Shown one piece after another: positions 763 to 38,230 of a stretch of DNA of 40,000 nucleotides. Position 1 is the stretch's first letter, and every line of letters begins with the position of its first letter. The position numbers were made by a program, and so were the translations under genes. This DNA is from Candidatus Peregrinibacteria bacterium (GTDB lineage Bacteria; Patescibacteriota; Gracilibacteria; UBA1369; PNNO01): positions 71,546 to 111,545 of the forward strand of contig JAFGJT010000008.1 of NCBI GenBank assembly GCA_016928915.1, written 5' to 3'. The notes beneath the pieces were generated by a model. The model was not told the DNA's origin. It did not search any database and was given only the letters and a program-made list of their open reading frames with translations.

Positions 763-1185
763 TTATCTCTTGCTGAACTGTGGAGCTCGTCTTGCTCTTT
801 TTAAGCCGAATTTCTTTCTTTCTTTGATTCTTGCGTCGCGTGTTAAAAAGCCGGCTTTTTTTAAGGTTGCGCGGAGCATCTCATCATATGCGAGCAGAGC
901 CCTTGCAACACCATGCCTTATGGCATCGGCCTGTGCAATTATTCCTCCGCCAAGAACTTTTACGCTTAAATCAACCTTTTTTGCCATTCCGCATAATTCA
1001 AGCGGGGACATAATGGCATCCTGCTGCACTTTTTGCTGGCAGAATTCTTTTAAAGGTTTTTCATTGATTTTAATTTCACCTTTTCCATCCGAAAAAAGTC
1101 TTACTCTTGCAACAGATGTTTTGCGTTTGCCTGTTGCGCTGTAAAATTTATTTTCCTTCTTTTTTGCTTTAGGTTGTGCTGGCAT
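763..1185 (-). CDS. rpsI: 30S ribosomal protein S9
   Basis: The 140-aa ORF ends in ...RDARIKERKKFGLKRARRAPQFSKR, the typical S9 C-terminus, and follows rplM as in the conserved rplM-rpsI pair. Confidence 0.95.
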   Translation of the reverse strand: MPAQPKAKKKENKFYSATGKRKTSVARVRLFSDGKGEIKINEKPLKEFCQQKVQQDAIMSPLELCGMAKKVDLSVKVLGGGIIAQADAIRHGVARALLAYDEMLRATLKKAGFLTRDARIKERKKFGLKRARRAPQFSKR

Positions 1186-1197
1186 AATTATAAATGA

Positions 1198-1626
1198 TTA
1201 TATCTTTAACAATTCGGGATTTTGCGCCTCGTGCTTATGCTCGGGGCCCGCATAAATTTTTAATTTCATCAGAATTTGTTTTCTTATTTTGTTGTTTGGG
1301 AGCATGCCTGTTATGGCAAGTTTAACCACTTTTTCGGGTTTTTCATCAAGCATCTTTTTTAAGGTGGTTGATTTTAATTTTCCGTACTGGCCGGAATGGG
1401 TATAGTACATTTTCTGTTCTTTTTTCATACCGGTGGTATGTACATCCTGTGCGTTAATTATTACAACAAAGTCGCCGCAGTCCATATGCGGCACAAAATA
1501 TGATTTGTTTTTACCGCGCAGTATTGCGGCAATTTTTGAAGCCATTCTTCCGAGAGTTTTACCTTTGGCATCAACCAGATACCATTTTCTTTCAATTTCG
1601 TTCTTTTTTGGTGATAGGGTCTTCAT
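1198..1626 (-). CDS. rplM: 50S ribosomal protein L13 (start trimmed to the internal ATG at 1626)
   Basis: MKTLSPKKNEIERKWYLVDAKGKTLGRMASKIAAILRGKNK... is a canonical L13 N-terminus. The 34 extra codons in the track ORF translate the intergenic hairpin element and overlap rplQ. Confidence 0.92.
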   Translation of the reverse strand: MKTLSPKKNEIERKWYLVDAKGKTLGRMASKIAAILRGKNKSYFVPHMDCGDFVVIINAQDVHTTGMKKEQKMYYTHSGQYGKLKSTTLKKMLDEKPEKVVKLAITGMLPNNKIRKQILMKLKIYAGPEHKHEAQNPELLKI

Positions 1627-1658
1627 ATTAATTAATTTATATTCATAGTTTTTAAATG

Positions 1659-1717
1659 TGGGGGATGGAACCTTAAAGACGGGTTCCGGGGGCCGCTTGT
1701 AGCCCGTGGACGGGCTA
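1659..1717 (-). repeat. Bipartite stop-codon hairpin element, copy at the rplQ 3' end
   Basis: The RNA reads UAGCCCG-UCCA-CGGGCUA (1700..1717; the UAG is the rplQ stop), then CAAGCGGCCCC and a second hairpin GGAACC...GGUUCC. Confidence 0.6.
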
Positions 1718-2071
1718 TACCAGTTCAATTAAAACCATTGGAGCACAGTCTCCCGCACGAAAGCCGACTTTTGTAATTCTTGTGTAGCCGGATTTGCGGT
1801 CTTTATATTTTACTGCCAGCTGTTCCATAATTTTTTTTGAGCAGTTTTTATGGTTAACCAGCTTGTTCAGCATTCTGATTGCGGTAAGTTTGTCATGCTT
1901 TTTGGCGGTATCTATAAGACGCGCCACATAAGGAGCGATAGCTTTTGCTTTTGGCTCGGTTGTTTTAACTTTTTCATGAATTATTACATTCATTGCCAAG
2001 GTTTTTAGAAGGAGTCTTCTGTGATCAGTTCCTCCGACGCCGAATTTTTTATTGCGTTTTTGATGCCTCAT
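1715..2071 (-). CDS. rplQ: 50S ribosomal protein L17
   Basis: MRHQKRNKKFG...HRRLLLKTLAMNVIIHEKVKTTEPKAKA is an L17 signature, and the gene sits directly downstream of rpoA. Confidence 0.94.
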   Translation of the reverse strand: MRHQKRNKKFGVGGTDHRRLLLKTLAMNVIIHEKVKTTEPKAKAIAPYVARLIDTAKKHDKLTAIRMLNKLVNHKNCSKKIMEQLAVKYKDRKSGYTRITKVGFRAGDCAPMVLIELV

Positions 2072-2083
2072 ATATGTCTTTAG

Positions 2084-3061
2084 TTATTCTTCTGATAGTT
2101 TTAAGCCTTTTTTATCAAGAGCGTCAGATACTTCGTTTAATGCTTTTTTTCCGAAGCCTCTTAGATTTGAAAGTTTGCTCTCTGTGCATTTTGAAAGTTG
2201 TTCAATAGAGCCGATTCCTCCGTTGATAAGAGCATTTAATGTTCGCGGAGAAAAGCCAAGAATTTCAATCGGGGTGTATGATTCCTGAACAGGTTTTGTT
2301 TTCTCCTGCTCTTTTTCTTTCTGCGCGATTTTTGCGAAATCACTCATGAATTCAGGTTCAACCATTATCCCTTCTTCGTTGAATAAATTAAAGTAAGAAG
2401 TAAGTATGTTAGATGCGAATTTCAGAGCGTCTTCGGGAGTGATCGTCCCGTCGGTTGCGATTTCCATTACCAGTTTGTCAAGATTTGTCATTTGTCCCAC
2501 ACGGGTATTTGTAACTTCGTATCTGACTTTAACTACAGGCGTATAAACCGCATCTACAACTATCATTCCCGCATCGTGTTCTTCTTTGCTTTTTATTGCC
2601 GCCGGAACATATCCAACACCTTTTTCAACCTTAAGATCCATTTTAAATTTTGAACTTTTTCCGTCAACAGTGGTTATATACAAATCCGGGTTTAAGATTT
2701 GCACATCGCTTGGACATTTAATCATTTTTGCAGTAACGACACCCGGTTTCGTAACATTTATTTCCAGCAAAGAAGGTTCTTTTGAATCCTTTTTAATATA
2801 CAGTTTTTTTAAATTAAGACAGATATCCAGAACGCTGTCTTTTGATCCTTTTACAACGGAATATTCATGAGTAACACCCGGAATTTTTACACCGGTAACA
2901 CTTGCACCAGGTAGAGACGACAATAGAACTCTGCGCAAAGCATTTCCCAGAGTCATTCCATAACCTGGAGGCAAAGGCCCGAGGTTGAAAATAACATGAT
3001 TGTCACCCTTTTTTTTGGTGCCAAGTCTGGGTATGCCGATTTCCTCTTGTATTTGATGCAT
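2084..3061 (-). CDS. rpoA: DNA-directed RNA polymerase alpha subunit
   Basis: The 325-aa ORF contains GYGMTLGNALRRVLLSSLPGASVTGVKI (alpha N-terminal domain) and has a C-terminal helix-hairpin-helix domain. It lies in the rpsD-rpoA-rplQ context. Confidence 0.95.
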   Translation of the reverse strand: MHQIQEEIGIPRLGTKKKGDNHVIFNLGPLPPGYGMTLGNALRRVLLSSLPGASVTGVKIPGVTHEYSVVKGSKDSVLDICLNLKKLYIKKDSKEPSLLEINVTKPGVVTAKMIKCPSDVQILNPDLYITTVDGKSSKFKMDLKVEKGVGYVPAAIKSKEEHDAGMIVVDAVYTPVVKVRYEVTNTRVGQMTNLDKLVMEIATDGTITPEDALKFASNILTSYFNLFNEEGIMVEPEFMSDFAKIAQKEKEQEKTKPVQESYTPIEILGFSPRTLNALINGGIGSIEQLSKCTESKLSNLRGFGKKALNEVSDALDKKGLKLSEE

Positions 3062-3078
3062 AATAGGTAATTTATTTG

Positions 3079-3705
3079 TTATTTTGAATAAAATTCAACA
3101 ATCATCTGAGCATCGAAAACATGCTCAAAATCATCGCGGGTGGGTTCTTTTATAACCTCGCATGTAAGGTTATTAGGTTCGCTTGAAAGCCATTTTGGGG
3201 CTTTGGATTTTTTCTGTATTATGTCTGCAAATAATGGGGATTTTTTTGATCTGTCCCTTATTTCGAGCTTGTCTCCCACTTTTACTTCAATTGAAGGGAT
3301 ATCAACTCTTCGGCCGTTAAGTTTTACAAGCCCGTGAGTGACAATCTGTCTTGCCTGTCTTCTTGTTTCGGCAAGTCCGGCTCTGTAAATTACGTTATCA
3401 AGCCTTTTTTCCAGCATTTTGATAAGAACGAAGTCAGTTGCTTCATTTGTCTTGATGGCTTTTTTGTAATAATTACTGAACTGTTTTTCGAGAATTCCAT
3501 AAATTCTTTTTGCCTTTTGTTTTTCTCTTAATTGTTTTCCGAATTCCGAAGGCTTTGCAAAAGTTCCTTTTTTCCCGTGCATGCCGGGAGGATAATTTTT
3601 TTTCTGCGCAGCTTTCATTGCCGACCCTTCGTAATTTCCAAATGCAGCGAGACTAATTCCGTCTCTTCGCGCCAATCTAACTTTCGGTCCTTTATATCTT
3701 GCCAT
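3079..3705 (-). CDS. rpsD: 30S ribosomal protein S4
   Basis: MARYKGPKVRLARRDG... with an S4 RNA-binding domain (RLDNVIYRAGLAETRRQARQIVTHG). Confidence 0.95.
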   Translation of the reverse strand: MARYKGPKVRLARRDGISLAAFGNYEGSAMKAAQKKNYPPGMHGKKGTFAKPSEFGKQLREKQKAKRIYGILEKQFSNYYKKAIKTNEATDFVLIKMLEKRLDNVIYRAGLAETRRQARQIVTHGLVKLNGRRVDIPSIEVKVGDKLEIRDRSKKSPLFADIIQKKSKAPKWLSSEPNNLTCEVIKEPTRDDFEHVFDAQMIVEFYSK

Positions 3706-3740
3706 TTATTATGATGTTAAGTTAACTTAATTGATTATGA

Positions 3741-3798
3741 AGAATGAAGATTTCGGCCTTGGAAATACAGGTGCCGAAAGTAGCCCTGGGAAGGGCTA
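3741..3798 (-). repeat. Bipartite stop-codon hairpin element, copy at the rpsK 3' end
   Basis: UAGCCCU-UCCC-AGGGCUA (3781..3798; the UAG is the rpsK stop), then UUUCGGC...GCCGAAA, then the flank AAUCUUCAUUCU that is shared with the rpsN copy. Confidence 0.65.
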
Positions 3799-4239
3799 TA
3801 TCCTTCTAGTTTTTCTTGCTCTGCATCCGTTATGCGGGATCGGTGTTGTATCATGTATTGATAAAATTTGAATTCCAGATGCGTTGATTCCTCTTATTGA
3901 CTGTTCGCGGCCGGAGCCGACACCTTTAACAAAAACATGAGCTTTTTCGATACCTATCGGTTTTGCTTTTTCAATTGCGTTTTCGGCGGCAACCTGCGCT
4001 GCATAAGGAGTTGATTTTCTTGTTCCTTTAAATCCGCTTGAGCCTGCCGAAGACCATGCAATAACATCCCCGTTGGGTTCGGTTATTGTAACAATAGTAT
4101 TGTTATAGGTAGCGGAAATATAAATTTTACATTCAGGTGAAACTTTCCTTTTTGATTTCTTTTTCTTAACAACCTTTGCGGGTTTTTCCGCCGCCTTGGT
4201 TTCTTCTTCCTGTTTTTTTGCTTTAACTTCTTCTGCCAT
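3796..4239 (-). CDS. rpsK: 30S ribosomal protein S11 (Lys-rich N-terminal extension)
   Basis: The core ...[44 protein letters not shown]... identifies S11. About 30 extra K/E-rich residues precede it. Confidence 0.95.
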
Positions 4240-4286
4240 ATAATTATTTAAGATTTAAGTATTAAGTTTTAAGTGAAGAAAATTCC

Positions 4287-4346
4287 GGGGAACGCGGCCC
4301 TATTTTTTTAAATGCGGGGGCCACTTATAGCCGTAAGAACGGCTCT
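4287..4346 (-). repeat. Bipartite hairpin element, distal tandem copy downstream of rpsM
   Basis: AGCCGU-UCUU-ACGGCU (4329..4344), UAAGUG, GUGGCCC...GGGCCGC, then GUUCCCC, which is shared with the tuf copy. Confidence 0.6.
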
Positions 4347-4360
4347 TGTTTTTATAATAT

Positions 4361-4402
4361 CGCGGCCTTAGTTGGCCGCCGGGAGCCGTAAGAACGGCTC
4401 TA
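4361..4402 (-). repeat. Bipartite stop-codon hairpin element, proximal copy at the rpsM 3' end
   Basis: UA-GAGCCGU-UCUU-ACGGCUC (4383..4402; the UAG is the rpsM stop and its G is the first stem base), then CCGGC-GCGGCC-AACUAA-GGCCGC. Confidence 0.65.
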
Positions 4403-4774
4403 TTTAGTGGTTATTTTTTTGTTAGCAACTGTTACTCTCTTTCCTTTCTTTGTTCTTGCATTGGTCTTGGTTCGCTGACCTCTTACAGGGAGTCTTCTTC
4501 TATGCCTGAATCCGCGGTAAGTTCCGATATCCTGAAGTCTTTTGATATCCATTGACATTTTTCTGCGCAGATCTCCTTCGAGAGACAGTTTGCCAACAGC
4601 TTCTCTTATTTTTCCAATTTCATCTTCTGTTAAATCATTTACCTTTGTATCAAGATTTATTTTCAATTCGGTTAAAACTTTTTTTGAAAGTCTTCTGCCG
4701 ATTCCATAAATTGCGGTCAGGCCGACTTCTATTCTTTTATCTTTTGGTAGATTTACGTTTGATATACGAGCCAT
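4400..4774 (-). CDS. rpsM: 30S ribosomal protein S13
   Basis: [34 protein letters not shown]...[23 protein letters not shown] matches S13. Confidence 0.95.
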
Positions 4775-4843
4775 ATATTATTACTTTTAACGATTAACAT
4801 TTGACATTTGACAAGTTGACATGTGGTTTTGAAACGGCCACCG

Positions 4844-4957
4844 CTACCCCTGTCTTTGTTTGTGCTTTTTAGTTTTGCAGATCACGCGAATTACACCCTT
4901 TCGGCGTATTATTTTGCATTTGTCACATATTTTTTTTACCGATGATCTGACTTTCAT
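4844..4957 (-). CDS. rpmJ: 50S ribosomal protein L36 (not in the ORF track, too short)
   Basis: Manual translation gives [37 protein letters not shown], with the canonical L36 zinc ligands (C,C,C,H). It sits between infA and rpsM. Confidence 0.9.
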
Positions 4958-4968
4958 AACCTTATATA

Positions 4969-5304
4969 TTATTGATTGCTTGTTTCTTCGGGCTGTTCAT
5001 TTTCAGCCGGTTGAGACTCTTCGTTTATCTCCGTGGCTTCTTCTTTTTTCTCCAACGCTTTTCTGGCTTCCGCCGCCGACTTGTGTCTGAACGTGATGCG
5101 TCCCTTTGTGAGATCGTAAGGGGTTAATTCAATAGTTACAGTGTCTCCGGGAAGTACTTTGATATAATTGACGCGCATCCGACCGCTTAAGTGCGCCAGC
5201 ACTGTGTGGTCCTTGTATCTTGCGTCCAAAAGTTTGACCCGAAATGTAGCATTTGGAAGAGTTTCTGTGATCTCTCCCAAAACCTCAATAACCTCTTTTG
5301 CCAA
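4969..5304 (-). CDS. infA: Translation initiation factor IF-1 with an acidic C-terminal extension (TTG start)
   Basis: The S1-like core is [27 protein letters not shown]...[35 protein letters not shown]. About 38 extra E/A/Q-rich residues follow. The start codon is TTG at 5304..5302. Confidence 0.9.
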
Positions 5305-5329
5305 TTTAGTTTGCGTAAAGAGCGTTAGG

Positions 5330-5358
5330 ATTTTACATTAGGGTTTTAGCCATTGCAA
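5330..5358 (-). promoter_or_regulatory. Candidate sigma70-type promoter for infA-rpmJ-rpsM...
   Basis: TTGCAA - 17 nt - TAAAAT on the minus strand, about 25 nt upstream of the infA TTG start. Confidence 0.4.
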
Positions 5359-5472
5359 CATGTTTTTTCGCATATTTATTGAATTTTAGAAAAATCGATT
5401 GCATACAGAATAGAATATTGTAAAACAACCTTTTGCTGTTTTGTATTTACGGGTGTTGAATTTTTGAAATTC

Positions 5473-5501
5473 TTGAATTTAAAGCCAAAAAATGATACAA
5501 T
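5473..5501 (+). promoter_or_regulatory. Candidate promoter for the patatin-like gene
   Basis: TTGAAT - 17 nt - TACAAT with an extended -10 TG (TGATACAAT), 27 nt upstream of the ATG at 5529. Confidence 0.4.
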
Positions 5502-5528
5502 GTTAAGAAAAACCAAAAAATATAATTT

Positions 5529-6428
5529 ATGTCCGAAAAGAAAAAAATAAAAAAAACTCTCGGAATAGGACTTGGAGGCGGGGGCGCTAGAGGTTTTGCC
5601 CATATTGGAATACTTGAAGTCCTTGAAGAAAACGGTATAAAGCCGGATTTTATTGCAGGAACAAGCATGGGTGCGGTAATTGCGGGTTTGTATGCCGTTG
5701 GATATTCAATACAGCGAATTAAAGAAATAGCGATAAATTTTAAAAACATTGAAATTATTCCCACCAGGTATCTTAATCTTTTGCACGAAAGCCTTTTAAA
5801 GTCGGACATTATTATTGAGGCCTTAAACCAGCTTTTTGACGGCAAAACTTTTAAGGACTGCAAGATTCCTTTTTATACCGTTGCAATTGATCTTGAAAGC
5901 GGCAAAGAAATTATGTTTAATAAAGGGCCTTTAAATAAAGCAATTCTTGCCTCCGTTTCAATTCCGATTATATTTCCGCCCACTTTTCATGAAGACAGAT
6001 ATCTTATAGACGGCGGTATACTTGAGAATGTTCCTTTAAAAGATATAAGAGCATTGTATAAACCGGATGTCTTGATCGGATCTAAAATCATCAATTATAC
6101 ATCAAGGCAATATATATCGGGGATGGTTTATGCAAAATATCAGCAGGTAAAATATGAATCATTGTTTAAAAAAGTAAATTTTATTGAAAATTTTGTAAAC
6201 AATACTAAAAAAGATCTGCATCTGCTTGTGGGGATTGCTCTAAGGGCAATGGATATTGCATCAAAGGACAACACCGACAAAAGAATTCTGGAGGCTAAGC
6301 CCGATATTTTGCTTGAACCTAACATTGATTGTGGTCTTCTTGAATTCGATAAAGCAGGAATTGCAATTGAGGAGGGCAGAAAGGCAATGTTTAAAGAACT
6401 TCCGAAACTTAAAGAATTACTTGGTTAA
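5529..6428 (+). CDS. Patatin-like phospholipase (RssA/PNPLA family)
   Basis: Oxyanion glycine loop GLGGGGARG, nucleophile elbow G-T-S-M-G and catalytic DGG (LIDGGILENVP). It lies on the opposite strand to the surrounding operon. Confidence 0.85.
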   Translation: MSEKKKIKKTLGIGLGGGGARGFAHIGILEVLEENGIKPDFIAGTSMGAVIAGLYAVGYSIQRIKEIAINFKNIEIIPTRYLNLLHESLLKSDIIIEALNQLFDGKTFKDCKIPFYTVAIDLESGKEIMFNKGPLNKAILASVSIPIIFPPTFHEDRYLIDGGILENVPLKDIRALYKPDVLIGSKIINYTSRQYISGMVYAKYQQVKYESLFKKVNFIENFVNNTKKDLHLLVGIALRAMDIASKDNTDKRILEAKPDILLEPNIDCGLLEFDKAGIAIEEGRKAMFKELPKLKELLG

Positions 6429-7169
6429 AATTTCAGCCCCGGTTTTTGTAACAACAACTGTATGTTCCCATTGGCAGGCGGGCAGACCGTCCTGTGTGAT
6501 TATTGTCCACTTGTCTTTTAGAGTACGAATTTTACCGGATCCCATAGCAACAATGGGTTCGATAGCTATTGTCATTCCGGCTTTTAAAACAGGGCCTGGT
6601 GATTTTTCTTTATAATTTACAATATACGGATCTTCATGAAGCTGTCTGCCGATTCCGTGTCCGGTGAGTTCTTTTACAACACTAAAGCCGTGTTGTTCTT
6701 CAATAATTTTTTGTATGGTATCTCCAATAATATTTAAGTATTCACCTTCTTTTATTTTTGAAATTGTTTCATATAATGCCTTTTTTACTATATATACAAA
6801 TTCTTTAACATCTTCCTGTACATTTCCAATAAAAAGGGTTACCGCGCTGTCACTGTGAAAACCTTTATACAGAACTCCGCAGTCTATTGTAAGAATATCG
6901 CCGTCTTTTAATATTTTTTTTTCAGAGGGGATTGAGTGTACAACCTGTTCGTTAACGGATGTGCATAAAGCGGCCGGGTATCCGTGGAATCCTTTAAAAG
7001 AAGGCTGTACGTTATAATTGTGCATTAATTTTTCGGCATATACATTTATTTCATGCGTGGACATGCCGATTTTTACAAAAGCTGAAAGATTTTTTAAAAT
7101 TTCTGCGAGAATTTTTCCACTTTCTCTCATTAATTCAATTTCATCCTTTGTTTTAATGATTATCGCCAT
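6417..7169 (-). CDS. map: Methionine aminopeptidase, type I
   Basis: The 250-aa ORF has metal-ligand contexts DGDILTIDCGV, TGHGIG and EHTV, in the adk-map context. Confidence 0.93.
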   Translation of the reverse strand: MAIIIKTKDEIELMRESGKILAEILKNLSAFVKIGMSTHEINVYAEKLMHNYNVQPSFKGFHGYPAALCTSVNEQVVHSIPSEKKILKDGDILTIDCGVLYKGFHSDSAVTLFIGNVQEDVKEFVYIVKKALYETISKIKEGEYLNIIGDTIQKIIEEQHGFSVVKELTGHGIGRQLHEDPYIVNYKEKSPGPVLKAGMTIAIEPIVAMGSGKIRTLKDKWTIITQDGLPACQWEHTVVVTKTGAEILTK

Positions 7170-7807
7170 TATTTTAAAAGTGGATCCAGAGCCTTAAATA
7201 ATAATTTTGATACTTCTTCGATTGTTTTGGACCCGTCTACACGGATTAGTTTACCTTCTTTTTCAAACAGTTCAATTACGGGCATGGTTTCATTAAAATA
7301 TGCTTTAATTCTTGTTTTTATGCTTTCCGGGTTGTCATCGGTCCTTGTTTCAAGTTTTCCTCCGCATTTTTCACATTTCTTTTCTTTGTACATTGCAGGA
7401 TATGCGGTTTTGCAGTCAGCGCATATACGGCGCGTTATAAGCCGGTTCGTGGCTTCTTTTTCGGAAAGATCCAGTATTAAAGCCTTATATTCGCGCTTGT
7501 CCTTTTTTAATAATTTTTCAAGCGATACAGCCTGGATTTTTTTTCGCGGAATTCCGTCAAAAATAATATTTTCTCCTTTTTTAATTTTTTTTATAAAATT
7601 TTCAACGATTTCCATTACAATTTCGTTTGGGACAAGATGGCCCGCTTCAATTATTGATTTAATTTTTTTTCCAAGAGGGGAGTTTTCTTTGGAAAGTCTT
7701 CTGAGTTCACCGCCCGTTTCAAAATACGCCATATTGTAGCGCTCTTTTAGAATTTTGCCCTGGGTTCCTTTTCCCGATCCCTGAATGCCGAAGAGAATTA
7801 AGTCCAT
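7169..7807 (-). CDS. adk: Adenylate kinase with a Cys4 zinc lid
   Basis: P-loop GIQGSGKGTQ and a lid with CADC...CEKCGG. The stop and start share one base with map (7169). Confidence 0.93.
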   Translation of the reverse strand: MDLILFGIQGSGKGTQGKILKERYNMAYFETGGELRRLSKENSPLGKKIKSIIEAGHLVPNEIVMEIVENFIKKIKKGENIIFDGIPRKKIQAVSLEKLLKKDKREYKALILDLSEKEATNRLITRRICADCKTAYPAMYKEKKCEKCGGKLETRTDDNPESIKTRIKAYFNETMPVIELFEKEGKLIRVDGSKTIEEVSKLLFKALDPLLK

Positions 7808-7825
7808 AAATAGAGAATAAATAAA

Positions 7826-7880
7826 TACGAATGCCGCGCCCCTGAAATCAAGGGGGCGCTTGTAGCCCTAAGAAGGGCTA
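7826..7880 (-). repeat. Bipartite stop-codon hairpin element, copy at the secY 3' end
   Basis: The secY UAA is followed directly by UAGCCCU-UCUU-AGGGCUA (7863..7880), then CAAGC-GCGCCCC...GGGGCGC (7836..7859). Confidence 0.65.
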
Positions 7881-9179
7881 TTAATAAAACTTACTGTAAT
7901 CATGCATAACAAGCTGCGCGTTTATCTGCCTCATCAGTTCAAGTACAACACCGATAATAATAATCATTCCCGCGCCGCTTATAAGAAGCGAAACCGAACC
8001 AATTCCCAGTGTGGAAAAAAGCGATCCGGTGATCATTGGCGCTACAGCAATAAATGCAATAAAAACACCACCCCATAAACATAGCCTGTTTGATACTTTT
8101 CCGAGATGATCGGAAGTTTCTTTGCCCGGTCTTATGCCGGGAATATAACCTCCTCTTTTTTGCAGATTTTCAGCTACTTGTTCGGGATTAAAAGTTATAC
8201 TTACATAAAAATATGTAAATGCGATAATTAAAAGGAAGTAAATAATTACATAGCCTATTGAATTTATTGAGAAATAGGTGAGAATCGCATCTCCGATTGC
8301 TTTTAAAGCGGGTGATTCGGAATGCTGAAAGAGTTGAGCCAGAAGTCCCGGGAAAGATGCCATTGAAACACCGAAGATAATCGGGATCATTCCCGCCTGA
8401 TTTACCCTGATGGGAAGTTCGGCATGATCGCTTTTACCCCGAACACCTCTGCCCGCGTAAATAATCGGAATTTTTCTCTGCCCTTCTGTAACAAGAATTA
8501 CTATTACAAGAAGAATAAGTGTGATAAGTATCATTAATACAAACGGCACGATACTTGTTGGATCAAACTGCGTCTGCGCAAGACTGGATGCGATGGCCAT
8601 AGGTATATTTGCGATAATGCCGGTAAAAATTATCATTGAAATTCCGTTTCCTATGCCGTGCTCCGAAATAAGTTCGCCGAGCCACATAAGGAATACTGTT
8701 CCCGCCGTTACTGTAAGCATAATGGGAATAATGACCGCTGGATTTTCAATTCCCTGCAGAATCGGCAGCTGTACCTGGGCGTTAATCAAAATAATCATTC
8801 CGTATGACTGAAGAAACGCGATAGGCACGGTTAACCACCTTGTATATTGGTTTAATTTTCTTCTGCCCTGCTCGCCTTCTTTTGAGAGGGATTCAAATTT
8901 CGGAACAATAACCGTTAAAAGCTGAATTATAATTGATGCGTTGATATAGGGTGAAAGACCCATAAGCAAAATGGAAAGGTTTTCCATGCTTCCTCCAGTA
9001 AGAGCGCTGAATACGCCGAGCAGCTGTGATTTGCTTACCGCCATTTTTACAGCTTCAAGATTTGCTCCCGGAATTGAAATCTGCGTGCAAAGTCTGTAAA
9101 TAATCAGAATTCCGATTGTGAAAATTATTTTTTTTCTTAAATCTTTGGAATTCCAGATTTGTTGAAGATATTTAAACAT
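7881..9179 (-). CDS. secY: Preprotein translocase subunit SecY
   Basis: The 432-aa polytopic membrane protein sits in the rplO-secY-adk position and carries typical SecY TM2/TM7 motifs. Confidence 0.95.
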   Translation of the reverse strand: MFKYLQQIWNSKDLRKKIIFTIGILIIYRLCTQISIPGANLEAVKMAVSKSQLLGVFSALTGGSMENLSILLMGLSPYINASIIIQLLTVIVPKFESLSKEGEQGRRKLNQYTRWLTVPIAFLQSYGMIILINAQVQLPILQGIENPAVIIPIMLTVTAGTVFLMWLGELISEHGIGNGISMIIFTGIIANIPMAIASSLAQTQFDPTSIVPFVLMILITLILLVIVILVTEGQRKIPIIYAGRGVRGKSDHAELPIRVNQAGMIPIIFGVSMASFPGLLAQLFQHSESPALKAIGDAILTYFSINSIGYVIIYFLLIIAFTYFYVSITFNPEQVAENLQKRGGYIPGIRPGKETSDHLGKVSNRLCLWGGVFIAFIAVAPMITGSLFSTLGIGSVSLLISGAGMIIIIGVVLELMRQINAQLVMHDYSKFY

Positions 9180-31081: not shown

Positions 31082-31130
31082 GGGGAACGCGGCCTTGGTC
31101 GGCCGCTAAGGAACACGAAGACGTGTTCTA
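31082..31130 (-). repeat. Bipartite stop-codon hairpin element, copy at the tuf 3' end (stem sequence replaced, structure kept)
   Basis: UA-GAACACG-UCUU-CGUGUUC (31111..31130; the UAG is the tuf stop), then CUUA-GCGGCC-GACCAA-GGCCGC (31089..31106), then GUUCCCC. Confidence 0.6.
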
Positions 31131-32321
31131 CTCCACAATCTTTGTTACAACACCTGAACCTACCGTTCTTCCGCCTTCACGGATAGCAAATCTTGTTCCT
31201 TCGTCCATGGCGATAGGAGCGCCAAGTGCTACATTGAACTTTAGGTTGTCGCCGGGCATAACCATCTCAACATCAGCCGGTAATTCCACTGAACCGGTTA
31301 CATCTGTTGTTCTGATATAGAACTGTGGTTTATAACCTTTAAAGAATGGAGTGTGTCGTCCGCCTTCTTCTTTTGTCAGGATATAAACTTCAGCCTCGAA
31401 TTTTGTATGCGGCTTGATTGTTCCGGGTTTTGCGCAAACCTGTCCTCTTTCAATATCGTCACGTTCAATACCTCTAAGCAACAGCCCAACATTGTCTCCG
31501 GCGCGGCCTTCGTCGAGAAGTTTCTTGAACATTTCAACACCTGTTACAACTACTTTTCTTGTTGGCTTAATGCCTACGATTTCAACTTCATCATTGATTT
31601 TTACTATACCCTGGTCAACACGACCCGTAGCAACTGTTCCTCTTCCTTTAATTGAGAATACATCCTCAACCGGCATAAGGAATGGTTTATCAAGATCGCG
31701 TTTTGGTTCCGGAACGTATGTATCTAATGTTTCAAGTAATTTTACGATTGGTTCGGCATCAGGTCCGTTTGGATTTTCAAGAGCTTTTAAAGCAGAACCC
31801 CTGATAATCGGAGTTTCATCTCCAGGATATCCGTATTTTTTAAGAAGATCGCGCACTTCCATTTCAGCAAGTTCCGCAACTTCAGGATCCGCAACGTCAA
31901 TTTTATTTAAGAAAACAATAATATGTGGAACATTCACCTGGTGAGCCAAAAGAATGTGTTCGCGTGTCTGAGGCATAGGGCCGTCGGCTGCCGATACAAC
32001 AAGAATAGCACAGTCCATTTGGGCTGCTCCGGTAATCATGTTCTTTACATAGTCGGCGTGTCCCGGGCAGTCTACGTGCGCATAGTGTCTGTTTGCAGTT
32101 GTATACTCCTGGTGGGAAGTTGCGATTGTAATACCGCGCTCTTTTTCTTCAGGTGCATTGTCGATTGCGTCGAATGCAATCGCTTTGTTGCTTCCTCCGA
32201 ATTTAGCGGCGGCAACAGCTGTAATAGCTGAAGTAAGAGTTGTTTTACCATGATCTACGTGACCGATTGTTCCCACGTTTACGTGCGGTTTGCTTCGGTC
32301 AAATTTTTCTTGTTCTGCCAT
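31128..32321 (-). CDS. tuf: Elongation factor Tu
   Basis: [28 protein letters not shown] and NKID motifs in a 397-aa ORF. Confidence 0.97.
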
Positions 32322-32453: not shown

Positions 32454-32714
32454 ATGTTGAAGAAAAATGATTATTATGTTATAATATCAAATAAAGTAAA
32501 TAAAATGTTATTAAAAAAACAAAAAAATAAAATTCGCATTAAAGCATTAATAAAAGCTTTTCATGGTCTCAATAAAAGATTAGGAAATGAAATACTTTTG
32601 CTTGAGGAATTTAAAAAAGCATTAGATAGGTTAAAATTGAAAAGGACAGGAGAGAGTGAAGAGGAGCAATTAAAAAAGCTCGAGAAACAGATAGGAAATC
32701 TTAAAACAGAATGA
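32454..32714 (+). CDS. Hypothetical small Lys/Glu-rich coiled-coil protein (86 aa; the true start may be an internal Met)
   Basis: The ORF is coupled to the next gene (TGA-T-ATG at 32712..32718), has a heptad-like K/E/L composition and very AT-rich DNA. Confidence 0.45.
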   Translation: MLKKNDYYVIISNKVNKMLLKKQKNKIRIKALIKAFHGLNKRLGNEILLLEEFKKALDRLKLKRTGESEEEQLKKLEKQIGNLKTE

Positions 32715-32715
32715 T

Positions 32716-35187
32716 ATGGGAAATCCAAATGTATTTCATAAGAAGGTTGAAAAAGAGATCGCTGCTTTAAAATTGAATGAAAAACCAAAAGAAAAGGGTA
32801 CAAAGGAAGAGCTGCTCAAAGAAAAAGCAAAATATGAAAAACTTAAGGATAAACTTAAAGAATTAAAGAAAAAGCTTAAAGCGACAATGCCAAAATACAC
32901 AGAAGATCAGAGGATAACTGAAAAAGAAGCAAATGAAATTTTTAAATCAATTTCACCAGAATTACTAAAAGAGCTCGGAATTGAAAATTCGTTGCATCTT
33001 ATGAATTTTACGGGGATTTATTCGATATCAGAACAGAAATTGTATATGGAGATTAATGATAAGCTTATAACTAATCCAAAAGAGCTTTTTAAAAATGTTG
33101 CTGTTTTTAAAAACGCCCCATGGGCTTTTGAAGTGCTTTGTGAAGCAATATTTAGAAATCCTACAGATTGTTCGGAAGAGACATTTGAAAATATTAAATT
33201 ATTTATAGAAAAATCCTGGGCAATAAATATTGTCAGCCTTGCGGCACCTTTTTGTCCGGATGAAGCTGTGAGAAATTATTCACTTTATAAAAAATTAACA
33301 GGATCGAATGAGATTTTTAAAATGGTTGCCTCATTAGCTGATGGAAGTTGTTTATTTGATTGCCTTGAAGATTTTATAAATGCTTCTTTTGCAAAAGACA
33401 TTTTACAAAGTAAATTTCTAAAAGACCCCGAATCTTCGTTTCTTGCATTTAGTAAAATTGATAAATATAGTCATATGCCATGGGCAGAAGAAATAATTAA
33501 ATCAGCTATAGATGTAACGCCAAATGAAAATTTTGAAGATTTTTTTAAAATATTAAAGAATAAAAATCTTCCACATTTAAAAGAGATTGTAATTTACGCA
33601 ATAAACAAAAAAGTAGACTATTTTTTAACGAATTATTTTACTGAGAAAGAAAAATATAAAGATATTGTAAATGAAAAAGATGTATTAAATATTTTCATAA
33701 ATCATTTCATAAACGATCCTTCGCTGGCCATTAAATATTATCCTTTATATAAGGATATGCCGTACGCAAAAAAAATTATCCAATCAGTTAGTCATTTAAT
33801 AAATAAGAATGATTTGCCGATTTTAAATGACGATTTCCCTGAACTGGTCCCTGAAGAACAGAAGAATGTACTGAAAATATTGGATAGATCTCCTGAAAAA
33901 GCTTTTACTTGGCTGGAGGCATATGAAAAACAACCTTATGCAAAAAATATATTGATTCGCGCAGCTATAAAATATCCTAAATCAGCTATTATATATTTTA
34001 AAAATTATAAAGACAAAATTTATGCACAAGAAATTTTAGAAACAGCTATAAAAGCTATAGATGGTAAATCATTGAATGAAGGTTTTCTGTTCAAATCGGC
34101 ATATGCTTCTATAAAATTTTTAAAATCCAAAACAGAAAAGTATTTAATATCACTGCTTAATTCTAAAATGAAAGATTATAAAAAGTTTATTGATGATATT
34201 TTGGGAAATACGATTCAATATACTATTAATTCAGAGTTTAAAAATATTAAACCTAAAGCTGGAGAAATTGAGGGGAGAAGTAAACAGTCGATAGATCTTT
34301 TTTGGAATGACCCTTCTGTCAAAAAAGTTCTAAAGATTCCATTTAAATGGATAATTATTAATAAATTTGTTAAATCTGCTGAAAAAAATGATTTACGTTT
34401 AATGGTAGCTCGTAATTTATATTTTCAAAATAAAAAAATAACATTTATAAATGTACAAACAGAGCTCAAACGTATTCTTGAACAACCCGAAGAATATAAG
34501 GACACCCCAGTTTTTAAAGGCCGAAAAGTACTAATGATGGCCCATAATGAAAAATGGGCTAATAATACATATAGATTTGGATGTACTGGTTTAATGGAAA
34601 ATATAAAAAAACAGGGTGGAAAAATTCAGTTATTTAGAGAGGAATCCAATATGGAGGGAAAAATTATACATAAGAAAAAAAATATTTTAAAAGCCATAAC
34701 AAATACTCCGCCTCCTTTAACAATTTATTTTGATGCACACGGAGCACCTGATGGTATTTATTTTTCAAACAAGTCTACTATTCATATAAACCAATCTGAA
34801 TTGGTGGAAGCATTAAAAAAAAGGAATGAAAAATATGCTAACGAACCCACTCCTATAATAATCTATGATCAATGTAATTCCAGTAAGTTTTTAAGGGGGG
34901 TTTATCAAAAATTAAAATTTTTTCCTAAGCCTATTTCAATTGGGACATCAGAATATGGGCAATTGGGATTTTCAGGAACTTCGGATGAAATTTTTATGTT
35001 TAAAGACAATAAAACCCATCCTATAACACTAAAAAATATTATATTAAATTCCAGACAAGTATATACTTTTAATTCTGTGATTTATATACCTTCAAAAAAA
35101 GGTCGTATTATGCAGGTTGCGGAAAAGAAAAGAAAAAAACAAAGAAAAACTATAGGACAAAACGAATCAGAAAAAGCAAATGCTTAA
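32716..35187 (+). CDS. Hypothetical 823-aa protein: N-terminal coiled coil, helical repeat region, C-terminal putative caspase-fold (clan CD-like) cysteine peptidase domain
   Basis: It contains repeats of [PS]-[WYF]-A-x-x-[IV]-[ILV] (residues 135, 167, 225, 255, 349, 407, 435). The C-terminal region shows beta-strand-H-G (LTIYFDAHG, His675 at 34738..34740) and beta-strand-C (IIIYDQCNS, Cys720 at 34873..34875), 45 residues apart. Confidence 0.6.
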   Translation: MGNPNVFHKKVEKEIAALKLNEKPKEKGTKEELLKEKAKYEKLKDKLKELKKKLKATMPKYTEDQRITEKEANEIFKSISPELLKELGIENSLHLMNFTGIYSISEQKLYMEINDKLITNPKELFKNVAVFKNAPWAFEVLCEAIFRNPTDCSEETFENIKLFIEKSWAINIVSLAAPFCPDEAVRNYSLYKKLTGSNEIFKMVASLADGSCLFDCLEDFINASFAKDILQSKFLKDPESSFLAFSKIDKYSHMPWAEEIIKSAIDVTPNENFEDFFKILKNKNLPHLKEIVIYAINKKVDYFLTNYFTEKEKYKDIVNEKDVLNIFINHFINDPSLAIKYYPLYKDMPYAKKIIQSVSHLINKNDLPILNDDFPELVPEEQKNVLKILDRSPEKAFTWLEAYEKQPYAKNILIRAAIKYPKSAIIYFKNYKDKIYAQEILETAIKAIDGKSLNEGFLFKSAYASIKFLKSKTEKYLISLLNSKMKDYKKFIDDILGNTIQYTINSEFKNIKPKAGEIEGRSKQSIDLFWNDPSVKKVLKIPFKWIIINKFVKSAEKNDLRLMVARNLYFQNKKITFINVQTELKRILEQPEEYKDTPVFKGRKVLMMAHNEKWANNTYRFGCTGLMENIKKQGGKIQLFREESNMEGKIIHKKKNILKAITNTPPPLTIYFDAHGAPDGIYFSNKSTIHINQSELVEALKKRNEKYANEPTPIIIYDQCNSSKFLRGVYQKLKFFPKPISIGTSEYGQLGFSGTSDEIFMFKDNKTHPITLKNIILNSRQVYTFNSVIYIPSKKGRIMQVAEKKRKKQRKTIGQNESEKANA

Positions 35188-35236: not shown

Positions 35237-36133
35237 TTATTTTGAAAGAACGCATGTGATTTGTTTTACAAGAAGCTCATCCAGTACGGGCAGACCGGTA
35301 AGGAATTTTAATACCGGGTTATTCCATTTTTCGTTAAAATAGTAGGAACATTTTATATTATTATTTTTTCTTAGATTTTTGAGGATTTTTTTAAATTTGC
35401 GTGTGGAAATATGGTTCAGATAAGTGAATTTTTCTTTTTCGTTAATTTTGCCGATTCTGAAATTGATTCGTTCTTGACCGTCCGGCAGATTCTGCACCAG
35501 TTTTTTGTATAATTTTATGCGAAATTGTTCGGTGGTAAAAACATGAAGCCACGGAATTGATATCACATCGGTAAGATGGTGCCCGTATGCATGATAGTAT
35601 GTGGCTAAGTTTATACATATGCTGCCTCCGGGGCGTATTACTCTTGAGGCTTCTTTAAGCGCTTTTTCGGGATTAGGTATGTGTTCAAGCGCATCATTTA
35701 GAAAAACAACATCAAAGGAGTTGTCTTTAAATGGAAGTTCTTTTGCGCTTGCCACCTTGAATTTTATTTTTTCCGATAAATTTTTTTCCGCTGCAAATTT
35801 TTTTGCCTGATCAATAAAATTTTTAGAAATATCAATACCGGTCATTGTTTTTAGTTCGGTATTTTCTGCAAGCCAGATGCTTTTTCCTCCTCCTCCGCAT
35901 GCGATATCAAGAACTTCTTTATCATTTAATGATTTCAAAAAGTCCAAATTGCCGCCTTCGAAAGCCTTAAAAGCCGTCTGATATGCAAGATTATATTCAA
36001 AATCAGTATAAGATAATTTCTGATCCTTGTTTTTTTTATCATTAAAAGGATGGGGAAGCGGACGAAAACGTTTATTTATAAAAAGCACCAGCTTTTCGCC
36101 CAAAGTAAAATTTTGAACTGAACTTTCTTTCAT
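35237..36133 (-). CDS. Class I SAM-dependent methyltransferase (Methyltransf_11/25-like)
   Basis: Motif I VLDIACGGGGKS and post-I/II DVVFLNDALEHIPNPEKALKEASRVIRPGG. The start lies 12 nt after the fusA stop. Confidence 0.8.
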   Translation of the reverse strand: MKESSVQNFTLGEKLVLFINKRFRPLPHPFNDKKNKDQKLSYTDFEYNLAYQTAFKAFEGGNLDFLKSLNDKEVLDIACGGGGKSIWLAENTELKTMTGIDISKNFIDQAKKFAAEKNLSEKIKFKVASAKELPFKDNSFDVVFLNDALEHIPNPEKALKEASRVIRPGGSICINLATYYHAYGHHLTDVISIPWLHVFTTEQFRIKLYKKLVQNLPDGQERINFRIGKINEKEKFTYLNHISTRKFKKILKNLRKNNNIKCSYYFNEKWNNPVLKFLTGLPVLDELLVKQITCVLSK

Positions 36134-36145
36134 TGTTTATAAGGC

Positions 36146-38230
36146 TTATGCACGTTTTACTATACCCGCTCTTGCTGTGATTATTTTTTCAGCAACGTTA
36201 TTTGGCACTTTATTATATTTGCCGAATTCCATTGTATATGATGCGCGACCCTGTGTCATTGACCTCAAGTCTGTTGCGTATCCGAACATTTCAGCCAGAG
36301 GAACTTCGGCCTTGATAAATTTTGCTAAGCTTCTGTCTCCGCTTTCGGTTATTTGTCCGCGTCTTGAGCTTAAATTGCCCATAACATCTCCGAAATAATC
36401 TTCGGGAGTTACAACTTCAACTTTCATAATCGGCTCAAGCAGTACGGGGTTTGCCTGTTTGGCTCCGTTCTGGAAGGCGATTGATCCTGCGATTTTAAAC
36501 GCAAGTTCGGATGAATCCACATCATGATAAGATCCGTCGTAAAGTTCAACTTTAATGTCAACCATCGGATAACTTGCTACTACTCCTCTTGTCATGGCTT
36601 CAATAATACCTTTATTTACAGCGGGAATATATTCGCGCGGGATTCTTCCTCCAACAACTTTATCGACGAATTCATAACCTTTACCCGGCTCCTGCGGCGT
36701 TAAGCGTATAAGTACATGTCCGTACTGTCCGCGGCCTCCTGTCTGTTTTGCGTATTTTTCTTCCGCCTCAACCGGAATCTGAATTGTTTCTCTGTATGCA
36801 ACTTGCGGCTTACCCACATTTGCCTCAACTTTAAATTCTCTTCTTAAGCGGTCAACAATAATTTCAAGGTGAAGCTCTCCCATACCTGCAATAATCGTTT
36901 GTGCGGTTTCTTCATCAGTGTATGTTTGAAAGGTCGGGTCTTCTTCTGCAAGTTTTTGCAGGGCAATACCCATTTTTTCCTGATCAACCTTGGTTTTTGG
37001 CTCAATGGCGATATGGATAACCGGATCAGGGAATTCAATTGATTCAAGAATAATCGGTTTGTTTTCATCGCATAATGTATTGCCGGTCATTGTTGCTTTT
37101 AAGCCGACGGTTGCGGCAATATCTCCGGCTTTCACTTCCTTGATTTCTTCTCTGTGGTTTGCGTGCATCTGAAGTATTCGACCTATTCTTTCTTTTTGTC
37201 TTGATGTGGTGTTGTATACATAGCTGCCCGCTGTAAGCACACCTGAATAAACTCTAAAAAAGCACAGTTTGCCTACAAAAGGGTCGGTTGCTATTTTAAA
37301 GGCAAGCGCGGAAAAAGGTTCATTAAATTCGGCTTTTCTTTCTTCCTGAGTATCGGTATCGGGATTTTTTCCTTTGATGGCGGGAACATCAAGCGGGGAA
37401 GGGAGATAATCCTGAACAGCATCAAGCATAAATTGCACACCGATATTAGCGAGAGCCGATCCGCACAGCACAGGATAAATCTGGTTTGATATTGTTCCTT
37501 TTCTTGTAGCAGCTTTAATTTCTTCTATGGAAATTTCTTTTCCTTCAATAAATTTTTCGGTTAACGCCTCATCACATTCGGCAACTTTTTCAACCATTGT
37601 TGCCCTGAATTTAGCGACCTGATCTTTCATATCATCGGGAATCGGAATTTCAACTATGTTTTCACCGTTTTTTCCCTCGAATTTATATGCTTTTTGTTCA
37701 ACTAAATCAATAATTCCGGAGAAAGTTCCTTCAGCTCCGATCGGAAGCTGAATTGCTACAGCTTTCGGGTTTAATCTTTTATGGATAGAATCAAGGCTCA
37801 TATAAAAATCAGCCCCCATTTTGTCCATTTTATTAATAAAAGCAAGGCGCGGTACCTCATATTTATCGGCTTGTCTCCATACTGTTTCTGACTGCGGTTC
37901 AACACCCTGAGATCCGTCAAATACAACGCATCCTCCGTCAAGAACACGCAGAGAACGTTCAACTTCAGCTGTAAAATCAACGTGTCCCGGAGTGTCGATT
38001 AAGTTTATTCTTACGTCTTTCCAACGGCAGGTTGTGGCTGCGGATGTAATTGTGATGCCCCGTTCTTTTTCCTGTTCCATCCAGTCCATTTCAGCCGCGC
38101 CTTCATGTACTTCACCTATTTTGTGCTTTTTACCGGTGTAAAAAAGCACGCGTTCGGATGTAGTGGTTTTACCCGCGTCAATATGCGCGATAATACCAAT
38201 GTTGCGTATAAGCCGTAAATCTTCAGACAT
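36146..38230 (-). CDS. fusA: Elongation factor G
   Basis: [34 protein letters not shown] and NKMD motifs in a 694-aa ORF. Confidence 0.97.

Follow-up and report, generated by a model that had tools for sequence, protein, structure and literature searches.

A predicted clan CD peptidase family with a helical-repeat scaffold and a recurrent small partner gene in Candidate Phyla Radiation bacteria

Introduction

In a 40,000-nucleotide stretch of genome from a Candidatus Peregrinibacteria bacterium (assembly GCA_016928915.1, contig JAFGJT010000008.1, positions 71,546 to 111,545 of the forward strand; hereafter the window), two adjoining plus-strand genes lie between tuf and fusA, and their products, a small helical protein (MBN1494430.1) and a protein of 823 aa (MBN1494431.1), are both labelled 'hypothetical protein' in the NCBI record of this 129-kb contig. 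The locus raises the question of what this two-gene cassette encodes, and how two such AT-rich genes came to stand among ribosomal-protein and str genes, in a genome that is itself low in GC (0.38). A first-pass annotation, made from the sequence alone, had proposed an orphan pair, possibly acquired horizontally, consisting of a caspase-like protease tethered to a repeat scaffold and a small coiled-coil partner.

Clan CD peptidases, which comprise caspases, metacaspases, legumain, separase, gingipains and the CHAT proteases among others, act as switches for cell death, immunity and protein maturation. Bacteria in the Candidate Phyla Radiation (CPR), to which the window belongs, have largely uncharacterised proteomes, and their biology depends on interactions with host cells.

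In this work, we followed up the cassette by homology searches, structure prediction and comparison of gene neighbourhoods. Judged from modelled structure and sequence comparison, it is best described as an unnamed clan CD family, seen so far only in CPR bacteria. The reading that we favour as a whole, namely a clan CD family in a solenoid-plus-small-partner arrangement that is accessory and mobile and works as an active intracellular protease regulated by its partner, is given a probability of about 0.6.

Results

A caspase-type domain at the C-terminus of the large protein

The two genes and the elements of the predicted catalytic domain are located as follows.

32454-32714, plus strand: open reading frame (ORF) of the small helical partner, annotated with 86 aa (MBN1494430.1)
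32716-35187, plus strand: ORF of the large protein, 823 aa (MBN1494431.1)
34501-35115, plus strand: predicted clan CD core, residues 596-800, with strands at residues 604-609, 636-640, 668-673, 714-717, 740-743 and 788-792
34738-34743, plus strand: His675-Gly676, with the predicted catalytic His (CAC, 34738-34740) at the end of the third strand (LTIYFDAHG)
34873-34875, plus strand: Cys720 (TGT), predicted nucleophile, at the end of the fourth strand (IIIYDQCNS)

The proposal of a caspase-like protease had been built on a hydrophobic strand ending in His-Gly and a later one ending in Cys; both are present in the sequence, with His675 and Cys720 spaced by 45 residues. Clan CD peptidases share an alpha/beta/alpha sandwich built around a sheet of six strands, which are ordered 2-1-3-4-5-6 and of which one runs antiparallel to the other five, and their dyad is formed by a His (usually in H-G) after strand 3 and a Cys after strand 4, with hydrophobic residues before each (PMC4357240). 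In the AlphaFold2 model of residues 520-823 (predicted local distance difference test, pLDDT, 84.9; predicted template modelling score, pTM, 0.85), six main strands alternate with helices, and the His and the Cys come after strands 668-673 and 714-717, respectively, as in the clan CD dyad. When the model was compared with the PDB by Foldseek, the top 50 matches were all clan CD peptidases (probability 0.97-1.00), the best being the glycosylphosphatidylinositol (GPI) transamidase PIGK (8imx_K, E 8.8e-5), with caspases-11, -7, -6, -4, -3 and -1, CED-3, drICE and a plant asparaginyl endopeptidase among the further ones. The BFVD viral library gave as its top matches a protein with a C14 caspase domain (3e-5), a clostripain (family C11) and, from giant viruses, caspase-like proteins.

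Among curated sequence families, only Peptidase_C13 of Pfam (PF01650) was detected, over residues 668-731, with E values of 0.0025 (full protein) and 0.0006 (isolated domain); the corresponding scores of 17.8 and 19.8 bits are below the gathering cut-off of 22.8, and the match spans profile positions 110-172 of 258, that is, about 65 residues around the dyad. Any C13 match was found in 3/33 and 1/24 family members. PF00656 (C14) gave no match at E<=1, and the CHAT model of Pfam (PF12770) gave none. Since the curated thresholds of C13, C14 and CHAT were not reached, the protein was not filed under any of these families, and the earlier remark that no named family is recognisable in the cassette still stands, with NCBIfam, PADLOC and PHROGs contributing nothing relevant. 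Matches to GrpE and CENPH were discarded as low-complexity coiled-coil similarity.

More distant relationships were approached with profiles. A profile of 33 family sequences matched human PIGK (E 0.002) and placed the positions of His675 and Cys720 on His164 and Cys206, which we take to be the catalytic residues of that enzyme. A second profile, of the core of 26 sequences, lost the PIGK match and favoured caspases; its first strand, loop L1 and H-G were aligned to an ancestral caspase-3/6/7, with the His on the caspase SHG motif and the family R-F-G opposite the caspase L1 arginine, in an alignment that is non-significant (E 0.2) and informative for the register only. These results bear on the idea that the protein is a transamidase or ligase, which, like GPI8/PIGK and the legumain-type ligases, would cut a C-terminal signal and join the new end elsewhere. 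PIGK is the closest sequence match and the top Foldseek match, and C13 the only Pfam family detected; nevertheless, the C13 match is short and below the Pfam threshold, the second profile dropped PIGK in favour of caspases, and the protein, soluble and apparently located in the cytoplasm, has no genes for membrane partners in its vicinity. We thus consider a transamidase very unlikely.

A large family with a near-invariant dyad

An exhaustive HMMER search of 1.84 billion cluster representatives, which are at most 50% identical to one another, returned 359 matching representatives at E<=1e-3 and 198 at E<=1e-10, and the description of the cassette as an orphan had to be abandoned. It took the exhaustive search to reveal this family, since a word-indexed protein search had yielded a single homologue when queried with the full protein and five when queried with a profile.

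When 134 domains were aligned with MAFFT, His675 was conserved in 132/134, Gly676 in 129/134 and Cys720 in 132/133, so that the homologues do keep both residues of the proposed dyad, as clan CD membership predicts. Other positions conserved in at least 90% of the domains were Asp532, Leu568, Phe600, Arg603, Glu612, Phe621, Pro667, Thr669, Arg703, Pro739, Glu746, Gln749, Pro792 and Gln800. Pseudo-orthocaspases without the dyad exist in bacteria (PMC6426788), and by that precedent the domain could be a catalytically dead scaffold; against this, few positions of the family are better conserved than the His, the Gly next to it and the Cys, and the window protein has all three, which leaves a pseudo-protease barely credible. 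With the AlphaFold2 model, the Foldseek results from two libraries, the near-invariant dyad and the PIGK register in agreement, we hold with high confidence that the C-terminal domain has the clan CD fold and its catalytic dyad, and the 823-aa protein is likely to be an active hydrolase.

The residues around the predicted substrate pocket can be compared with those of well-studied clan members. Specificity at S1 is determined in caspase-7 by Arg87 (L1), Gln184 (L4) and Arg233 (L5), and in legumain by a zwitterionic pocket made of Arg44 and His45 after strand 1 and of Ser216 and Asp231 on L5 (PMC4357240). In L1, the family has Glu612 (at least 90%) and, about 10 residues after strand 1, Arg620 (92/131, 70%), and it has the L5 segment Ser745-Glu746-Tyr-Gly-Gln749. 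By this alignment, the candidate pocket residues are compatible with a legumain-like zwitterionic pocket or with an acidic one accepting basic residues.

The shared part corresponds to the C-terminal ~300 residues, which end no more than 40 residues from the C-terminus in 118/143 proteins. The region before it is of 1 to more than 1400 residues (median 418), and giant members reach 3901-4358 aa, the catalytic domain being internal in two of them. Apart from the rare sub-threshold C13 matches and one thioredoxin, no other Pfam domain was found in the family, and none that would hint at a function in the giant members. A transmembrane-like segment is lacking in 142/150 representatives.

Every named genome encoding a family member is that of a CPR bacterium. 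Loci were mapped with an alignment of 6 sequences, the one of 33 having proved too diverse; Peribacteria account for 8 of the 12 loci, and the others include Gracilibacteria, Paceibacterota, Saccharibacteria and a genome labelled 'Patescibacteria group'. Literature searches did not bring up any account of a caspase-like family from CPR bacteria. One Peribacteria genome has two tandem paralogues (L004, 3193-8894), and the FLOH01 assembly has two copies on different contigs (L028 and L030); thus, the family can be multi-copy.

Solenoid, N-terminal module and family-specific subdomain

The regions preceding the catalytic core were delimited in a full-length AlphaFold2 model (41-sequence alignment; pLDDT 85.5, pTM 0.60).

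32716-33009, plus strand: N-terminal module, residues 1-98, with model helices 5-16, 30-61 and 69-99
33010-34116, plus strand: alpha-solenoid, residues 99-467, of 11-12 tandem helical repeats of 28-32 aa each
34126-34500, plus strand: long connecting helix (residues 471-507), then a helical subdomain specific to the family (residues 515-594) with the conserved Asp532
34408-34428, plus strand: ARNLYFQ motif, residues 565-571, with the invariant Arg566 (134/134)

The N-terminus had been described as a K/E-rich coiled coil, and the model does show a long charged helix there (residues 30-61), followed by a conserved segment, E-I-F-K-x-x-P...L-L-x-E-L. In the solenoid, units in register give the consensus [YF]-K-[DN]-x-P-[WY]-A-x-[ED]-I-[IL]-x-x-A-[IV], and the core pattern [WYF]A..[IV][ILV]..[ASV][IVS] occurs 4 times against 0.005 expected from 2000 shuffles. 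The repeat motif recognised at first sight is therefore real; its count, given as at least seven, is revised to 11-12 units over residues ~99-461/467. With the N-terminal part of the protein, Foldseek returned only generic solenoid matches of the TPR, ARM and HEAT-like types. Proteins of 298-2285 aa without the protease domain also have the P-[WY]-A-x-x-I-[IL] repeat, up to 10 times each (P0115, P0121, P0126, P0129, P0122, P0093 and P0150), and it thus constitutes a separate, unnamed repeat family.

Within the helical subdomain, the family motif A-R-N-L-Y-F-Q-[GNK] holds the only fully invariant residue of the alignment, Arg566. Its NLYFQ part mimics the tobacco etch virus (TEV) protease site ENLYFQ/G, and members with RNLYFQG could be cut in TEV-tagged constructs. 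A PDB match to 'Myc' was rejected as a TEV-tag artefact arising from the same NLYFQ. Neither a signal peptide nor a membrane segment was predicted in the 823-aa protein.

A small helical ORF recurs directly upstream of the predicted protease gene

Two further elements concern the expression of the small partner.

32457-32485, plus strand: promoter-like site TTGAAG-17-TATAAT, with TG before the -10 element, just upstream of the Met18 ATG (32505)
32712-32718, plus strand: coupling junction TGA-T-ATG, reading GAA TGA T ATG between the small and the large ORFs

From Met18 onwards, the small ORF aligns with a 68-aa protein encoded at the same position in locus L001 of a close relative (50% identity, E 6e-19), where the junction with the large gene also has one-base spacing (TAA-C-ATG). 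If the promoter-like site were used, transcription would start just upstream of the ATG at 32505; such sites are not in excess in the region (16, against 17.5 expected after shuffling), and the candidate is only suggestive. Since the L001 homologue aligns from Met18 and the promoter-like site lies upstream of it, a product of 69 aa is favoured, and the small protein probably starts at Met18 (32505) and not at the start that gives the annotated 86 aa.

The small protein is K/E-rich and has a conserved core, E-x-x-L-L ... K-[RK] ... L-x-x-L-[EN], common to five partners. These were gathered with a hidden Markov model (HMM) made from four proteins (the window, L001, L017 and L021) and run against 3405 ORFs of at least 30 aa from all loci: below E=0.1 its only matches were the four sequences from which it had been made and a single further ORF (L024, 4824-4994; E 3e-4), and each of the five is directly followed by a family gene. 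The ~100-residue N-terminal module of the large protein is kept only in members with a window-type partner, namely those of the window, L001, L017 and, in part, L021 and L024. In a broader sense, a small same-strand ORF (51-133 aa) that overlaps the family gene or is separated from it by no more than 3 nt is found upstream in ~13/30 loci. Tight coupling to a small ORF upstream, as suggested for the window protein, is thus seen again in many loci, so that a small helical ORF plus a protease is conserved as an arrangement. Homology of all partners is not claimed, as the small helical ORFs found at this position in other loci are not detectably related to that of the window. That the partner physically regulates the protease is a genuine possibility, to which we give somewhat less than even chances.

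The cassette genes differ in base composition from the rest of the window

The small ORF has a GC content of 0.271 and a GC content at third codon positions (GC3) of 0.214, and the large ORF of 0.284 and 0.200, as compared with means of 0.393 (standard deviation 0.030, minimum 0.333) and 0.341 (minimum 0.280) in the other 39 ORFs of the window. The two cassette ORFs are therefore the most AT-rich genes of the window, below every other ORF in both measures, and the sliding GC profile falls to 0.26; the A+T-richness noted by eye has in this way been quantified, and, as GC3 is lowered too, the shift extends to synonymous positions. In the family, the gene is more AT-rich than its neighbours in 25/27 comparisons, with a z-score of -3 or lower in the window, L001, L005, L017 and L024.

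The stop codons of the 41 window ORFs are TAA in 34, TAG in 6 and TGA in 1, and the sole TGA is that of the small cassette ORF. TGA is hardly used in this stretch, which comes from a lineage related to groups that read UGA as glycine. An alternative genetic code was rejected for the window itself, since all long ORFs are intact under table 11; with TGA read as sense, the small ORF would gain only 9 residues and the two genes would not be fused. In loci L007 and L024, by comparison, coding density rises from 0.40-0.52 to 0.83-0.91 with TGA as sense (code 25, Gracilibacteria-like), indicating that the family spans lineages with different genetic codes.

Signs of accessory and mobile behaviour

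A close comparison is provided by L001 (ENA ERZ27247363, also in JGI 3300029288), which is collinear with window positions 763-9179, the 11 core proteins concerned being 73-91% identical. Its cassette stands between the patatin gene and map, where the window has none, and its large and small proteins are 39% and 50% identical to those of the window. The patatin-like phospholipase gene of the window (5529-6428, plus strand) is placed between infA and map on the opposite strand, with a 12-nt overlap with the end of map. This patatin site is conserved in L001 (79% identity), with the protease cassette directly after it and stop-N-ATG junctions.

In a Peribacteria contig (L010, CAYHBN010000058.1), a 971-aa family member and a 328-aa unknown gene occupy a 4.1-kb segment beside tuf-rpsJ. 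It is bounded by direct repeats (814-992 and 5097-5275) whose ~139-nt core, with one mismatch, corresponds to the last 135 nt of rpsJ. By its sequence, this segment looks like an insertion that duplicated its target, but no integrase is present. The suggestion of possible horizontal acquisition is thus upheld by base composition, by the different site and greater divergence in L001, and by the repeat-bounded insert in L010. Searches of phage and plasmid records and of IMG/VR gave no homologue, and so lend no support to carriage by a phage or plasmid.

In the ~30 neighbourhoods mapped, most of whose genes are unannotated, no CRISPR, SAVED, NACHT or gasdermin genes were seen. Beyond the small upstream ORF, no neighbour is conserved, the annotated ones being housekeeping genes such as those for Fpg, serine hydroxymethyltransferase, a Cys/Met pyridoxal phosphate enzyme and a polysaccharide deacetylase. 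The family genes of the window, L001, L010, L011 and L024 are near tuf, rpsJ, infA, rplU or rpoA; a preference for translation-gene clusters is not claimed, as ~5/30 loci is not clearly above what is expected for small CPR genomes dense in ribosomal protein genes.

These data also allow us to consider an exported effector, in the manner of polymorphic toxins, in which the C-terminal protease would be a warhead for a host bacterium, the variable N-terminus would serve for delivery, and the small protein would be an export chaperone or adaptor. The position of the catalytic domain near the C-terminus in 118/143 members and the highly variable length of the N-terminal regions agree with this proposal, as do the accessory, AT-rich and multi-copy behaviour, the small helical ORF upstream combined with a helical N-terminal module, and the presumed life of CPR bacteria as symbionts of other cells (PMC8080830). 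However, 142/150 representatives have no signal peptide or transmembrane segment, the ~30 neighbourhoods show no secretion-system genes and no conserved downstream immunity gene, and the domain is internal in two giant members. An exported effector is unlikely in our estimation, and we return below to an intracellular protease.

Gene order around the cassette

The genes adjoining the cassette are all on the minus strand.

31128-32321, minus strand: tuf, left flank of the cassette
35237-36133, minus strand: class I S-adenosylmethionine (SAM) methyltransferase (Methyltransf_11, E 5e-28), UbiE/ArsM-like, on the same strand as fusA and tuf
36146-38230, minus strand: fusA, right flank beyond the methyltransferase

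The order tuf-small-large-methyltransferase-fusA is repeated in a second assembly (Logan contig SRR13394437_1108591). The first-pass annotation had counted two coupled plus-strand genes between tuf and fusA; the coupling was confirmed, and the methyltransferase has to be added as a third gene there. It was rejected as a member of the cassette and treated as a separate gene because of its opposite strand, its near-normal GC and the contexts of its homologues, which are related to the envelope and glycosylation. These homologues (40-48% identical, on other CPR contigs) have glycosyltransferase, WecG or type II secretion-like genes as neighbours and are not located in a fusA-tuf interval.

The separation of fusA from tuf is likewise real, but the cassette is not a special break, since in this genome str/S10 as a whole is broken up in many places by non-translation genes, heavily so over window positions 18300-40000. 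Neither rpsL nor rpsG is adjacent to fusA, and a gene for an SLH-domain protein (plus strand, from ~38400 and running off the window end) occupies their place. Between tuf and rpsJ there are genes for a 2139-aa bacterial alpha-2-macroglobulin, an RlmL-like methyltransferase, a ferritin and PBP1, and between rpsJ and rplC those for a DUF218 protein and two unknown proteins. The genes that break up str/S10, including the SLH, methyltransferase, patatin and DUF218 genes, have normal GC.

Given this setting, the cassette might be an ordinary, vertically inherited pair, AT-rich through its composition, low expression and fast evolution, whose change of site reflects a local rearrangement. Interruption of str/S10 by unrelated genes throughout, the lack of mobility genes, flanking repeats and tRNA genes in the window, an AT-richness relative to neighbours that is found nearly everywhere and could be a family property, and the presence of one copy in each of two related genomes would all be explained. 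Opposed to it are the GC3 of 0.20 versus 0.34, by which synonymous positions are shifted too, the identity of 39-50% between cassette proteins versus 73-91% for the 11 collinear flanking core proteins, the sole TGA stop of the window, which lies in the cassette, and the repeat-bounded insert in L010. Purely vertical inheritance is in our opinion improbable, and accessory behaviour with movement between genomes is preferred.

Discussion

Integrating these findings, the 823-aa protein is probably an accessory, regulated intracellular protease. In the mechanism that we propose, it would act inside the cell as a P1-selective endopeptidase, in which Cys720 would attack the scissile bond with the assistance of His675, while the solenoid would select the substrate or sense a trigger. 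The co-translated small protein would bind the large one, most plausibly through the co-occurring N-terminal helical module, and would either direct the protease or prevent its activity, in the way that securin restrains separase and antitoxins restrain toxins. The module as a whole would be accessory and move between CPR genomes, and a part in conflict or regulated proteolysis would be likelier than a housekeeping one.

Several observations weigh against this picture. On the side of the fold, the TM-scores against solved clan CD structures are modest (0.3-0.5), searches of Pfam, NCBIfam, PADLOC, PHROGs and PDB sequences gave no model at threshold and nothing relevant for either protein, and the pocket residues allow no unambiguous P1 prediction. 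On the side of the partner, about half of the loci have no small upstream ORF, and those of L004, L005/L012, L018/L019 and L030/L031 have no detectable similarity to the window partner. As to mobility, the window has no mobility genes, the cassette is not flanked by repeats in direct or inverted orientation and has no tRNA genes or Rfam elements around it, the phage, plasmid and IMG/VR searches were negative, and no linked defence, toxin-antitoxin or mobility genes were seen; moreover, the AT-richness could come in part from a composition rich in K, N, I and E and from low expression.

A role in conflict or addiction can be put forward only tentatively, and we regard it as rather doubtful. More doubtful still is its most specific version, a module exclusive to CPR bacteria and comparable to separase-securin or to a protease toxin-antitoxin pair, in which the 69-aa protein would be a pseudosubstrate inhibitor released upon a trigger, and the whole would be mobile between episymbiont genomes. 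Phage infection, loss of the module or contact with the host might be such triggers, upon which cellular or host targets would be cleaved. If true, this would amount to a new kind of conflict or addiction system based on a new clan CD family.

Irrespective of its role, the family adds 359 clusters at 50% identity that curated libraries do not name, with named genomes from Peregrinibacteria/Peribacteria, Gracilibacteria, Paceibacterota and Saccharibacteria, and the type of helical repeat and the recurrent small partner gene are new elements. With two predicted catalytic residues and a two-gene unit expressible in E. coli, it offers a testable handle on regulated proteolysis or conflict in CPR bacteria, and a seed alignment is available for a new Pfam or MEROPS entry.

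Comparison with known systems

Family C13 (legumain/GPI8, PF01650) resembles the 823-aa protein in fold class, in the H-G and Cys placed after consecutive hydrophobic strands at a similar spacing, and in being a single chain with extra regulatory domains. In contrast, the 823-aa protein has no signal peptide or membrane anchor, it carries an N-terminal solenoid in place of a C-terminal prodomain, its core is preceded by the helical subdomain with Arg566, and its family is so far restricted to CPR bacteria. With C14 (caspases, metacaspases and orthocaspases) it shares, according to the model, the six-stranded sheet and a dyad on L3 and L4, and caspases make up most of the top 50 PDB fold matches; yet the family lacks the QACxG motif and shows no sign of an inter-subunit cleavage site or of dimerisation, and its loop residues are different, with the conserved Glu612 and Glu746.

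In overall design, parallels are found elsewhere in the clan. Separase is a eukaryotic protease of family C50. As in the separase/securin pair, an extended region of helical repeats at the N-terminus is joined to a caspase-like domain at the C-terminus, and a small partner has a gene of its own. By analogy, the partner of the cassette, with its conserved K-[RK], might act as a pseudosubstrate inhibitor, a role that is conjectural here and for which the translational coupling, the recurrence, the K-[RK] and the N-terminal module that goes with this partner are circumstantial evidence; there is no sequence relation to separase, however, and human separase appears at Foldseek rank 29 with a probability of 0.38. 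TPR-CHAT (Csx29) and other CHAT defence proteases are likewise composed of an N-terminal repeat scaffold and a C-terminal caspase-like protease, and are accessory genes with variable sensor parts, but the repeats of the 823-aa protein are of a new sequence type, and no CHAT match or relevant PADLOC match was obtained.

The arrangement of the genes also recalls the LXG polymorphic toxins of type VII systems, in which the gene for a large protein with a helical N-terminus and a C-terminal enzymatic domain is directly preceded by genes for small helical proteins. Unlike these, the CPR loci examined have no type VII genes or downstream immunity gene, and no sequence similarity was detected. The likeness to separase-securin and TPR-CHAT is a resemblance of design, drawn by analogy, with no homology shown beyond the clan. 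The clan itself is known; what is new is a clan CD family with a new type of repeat and a recurrent small partner.

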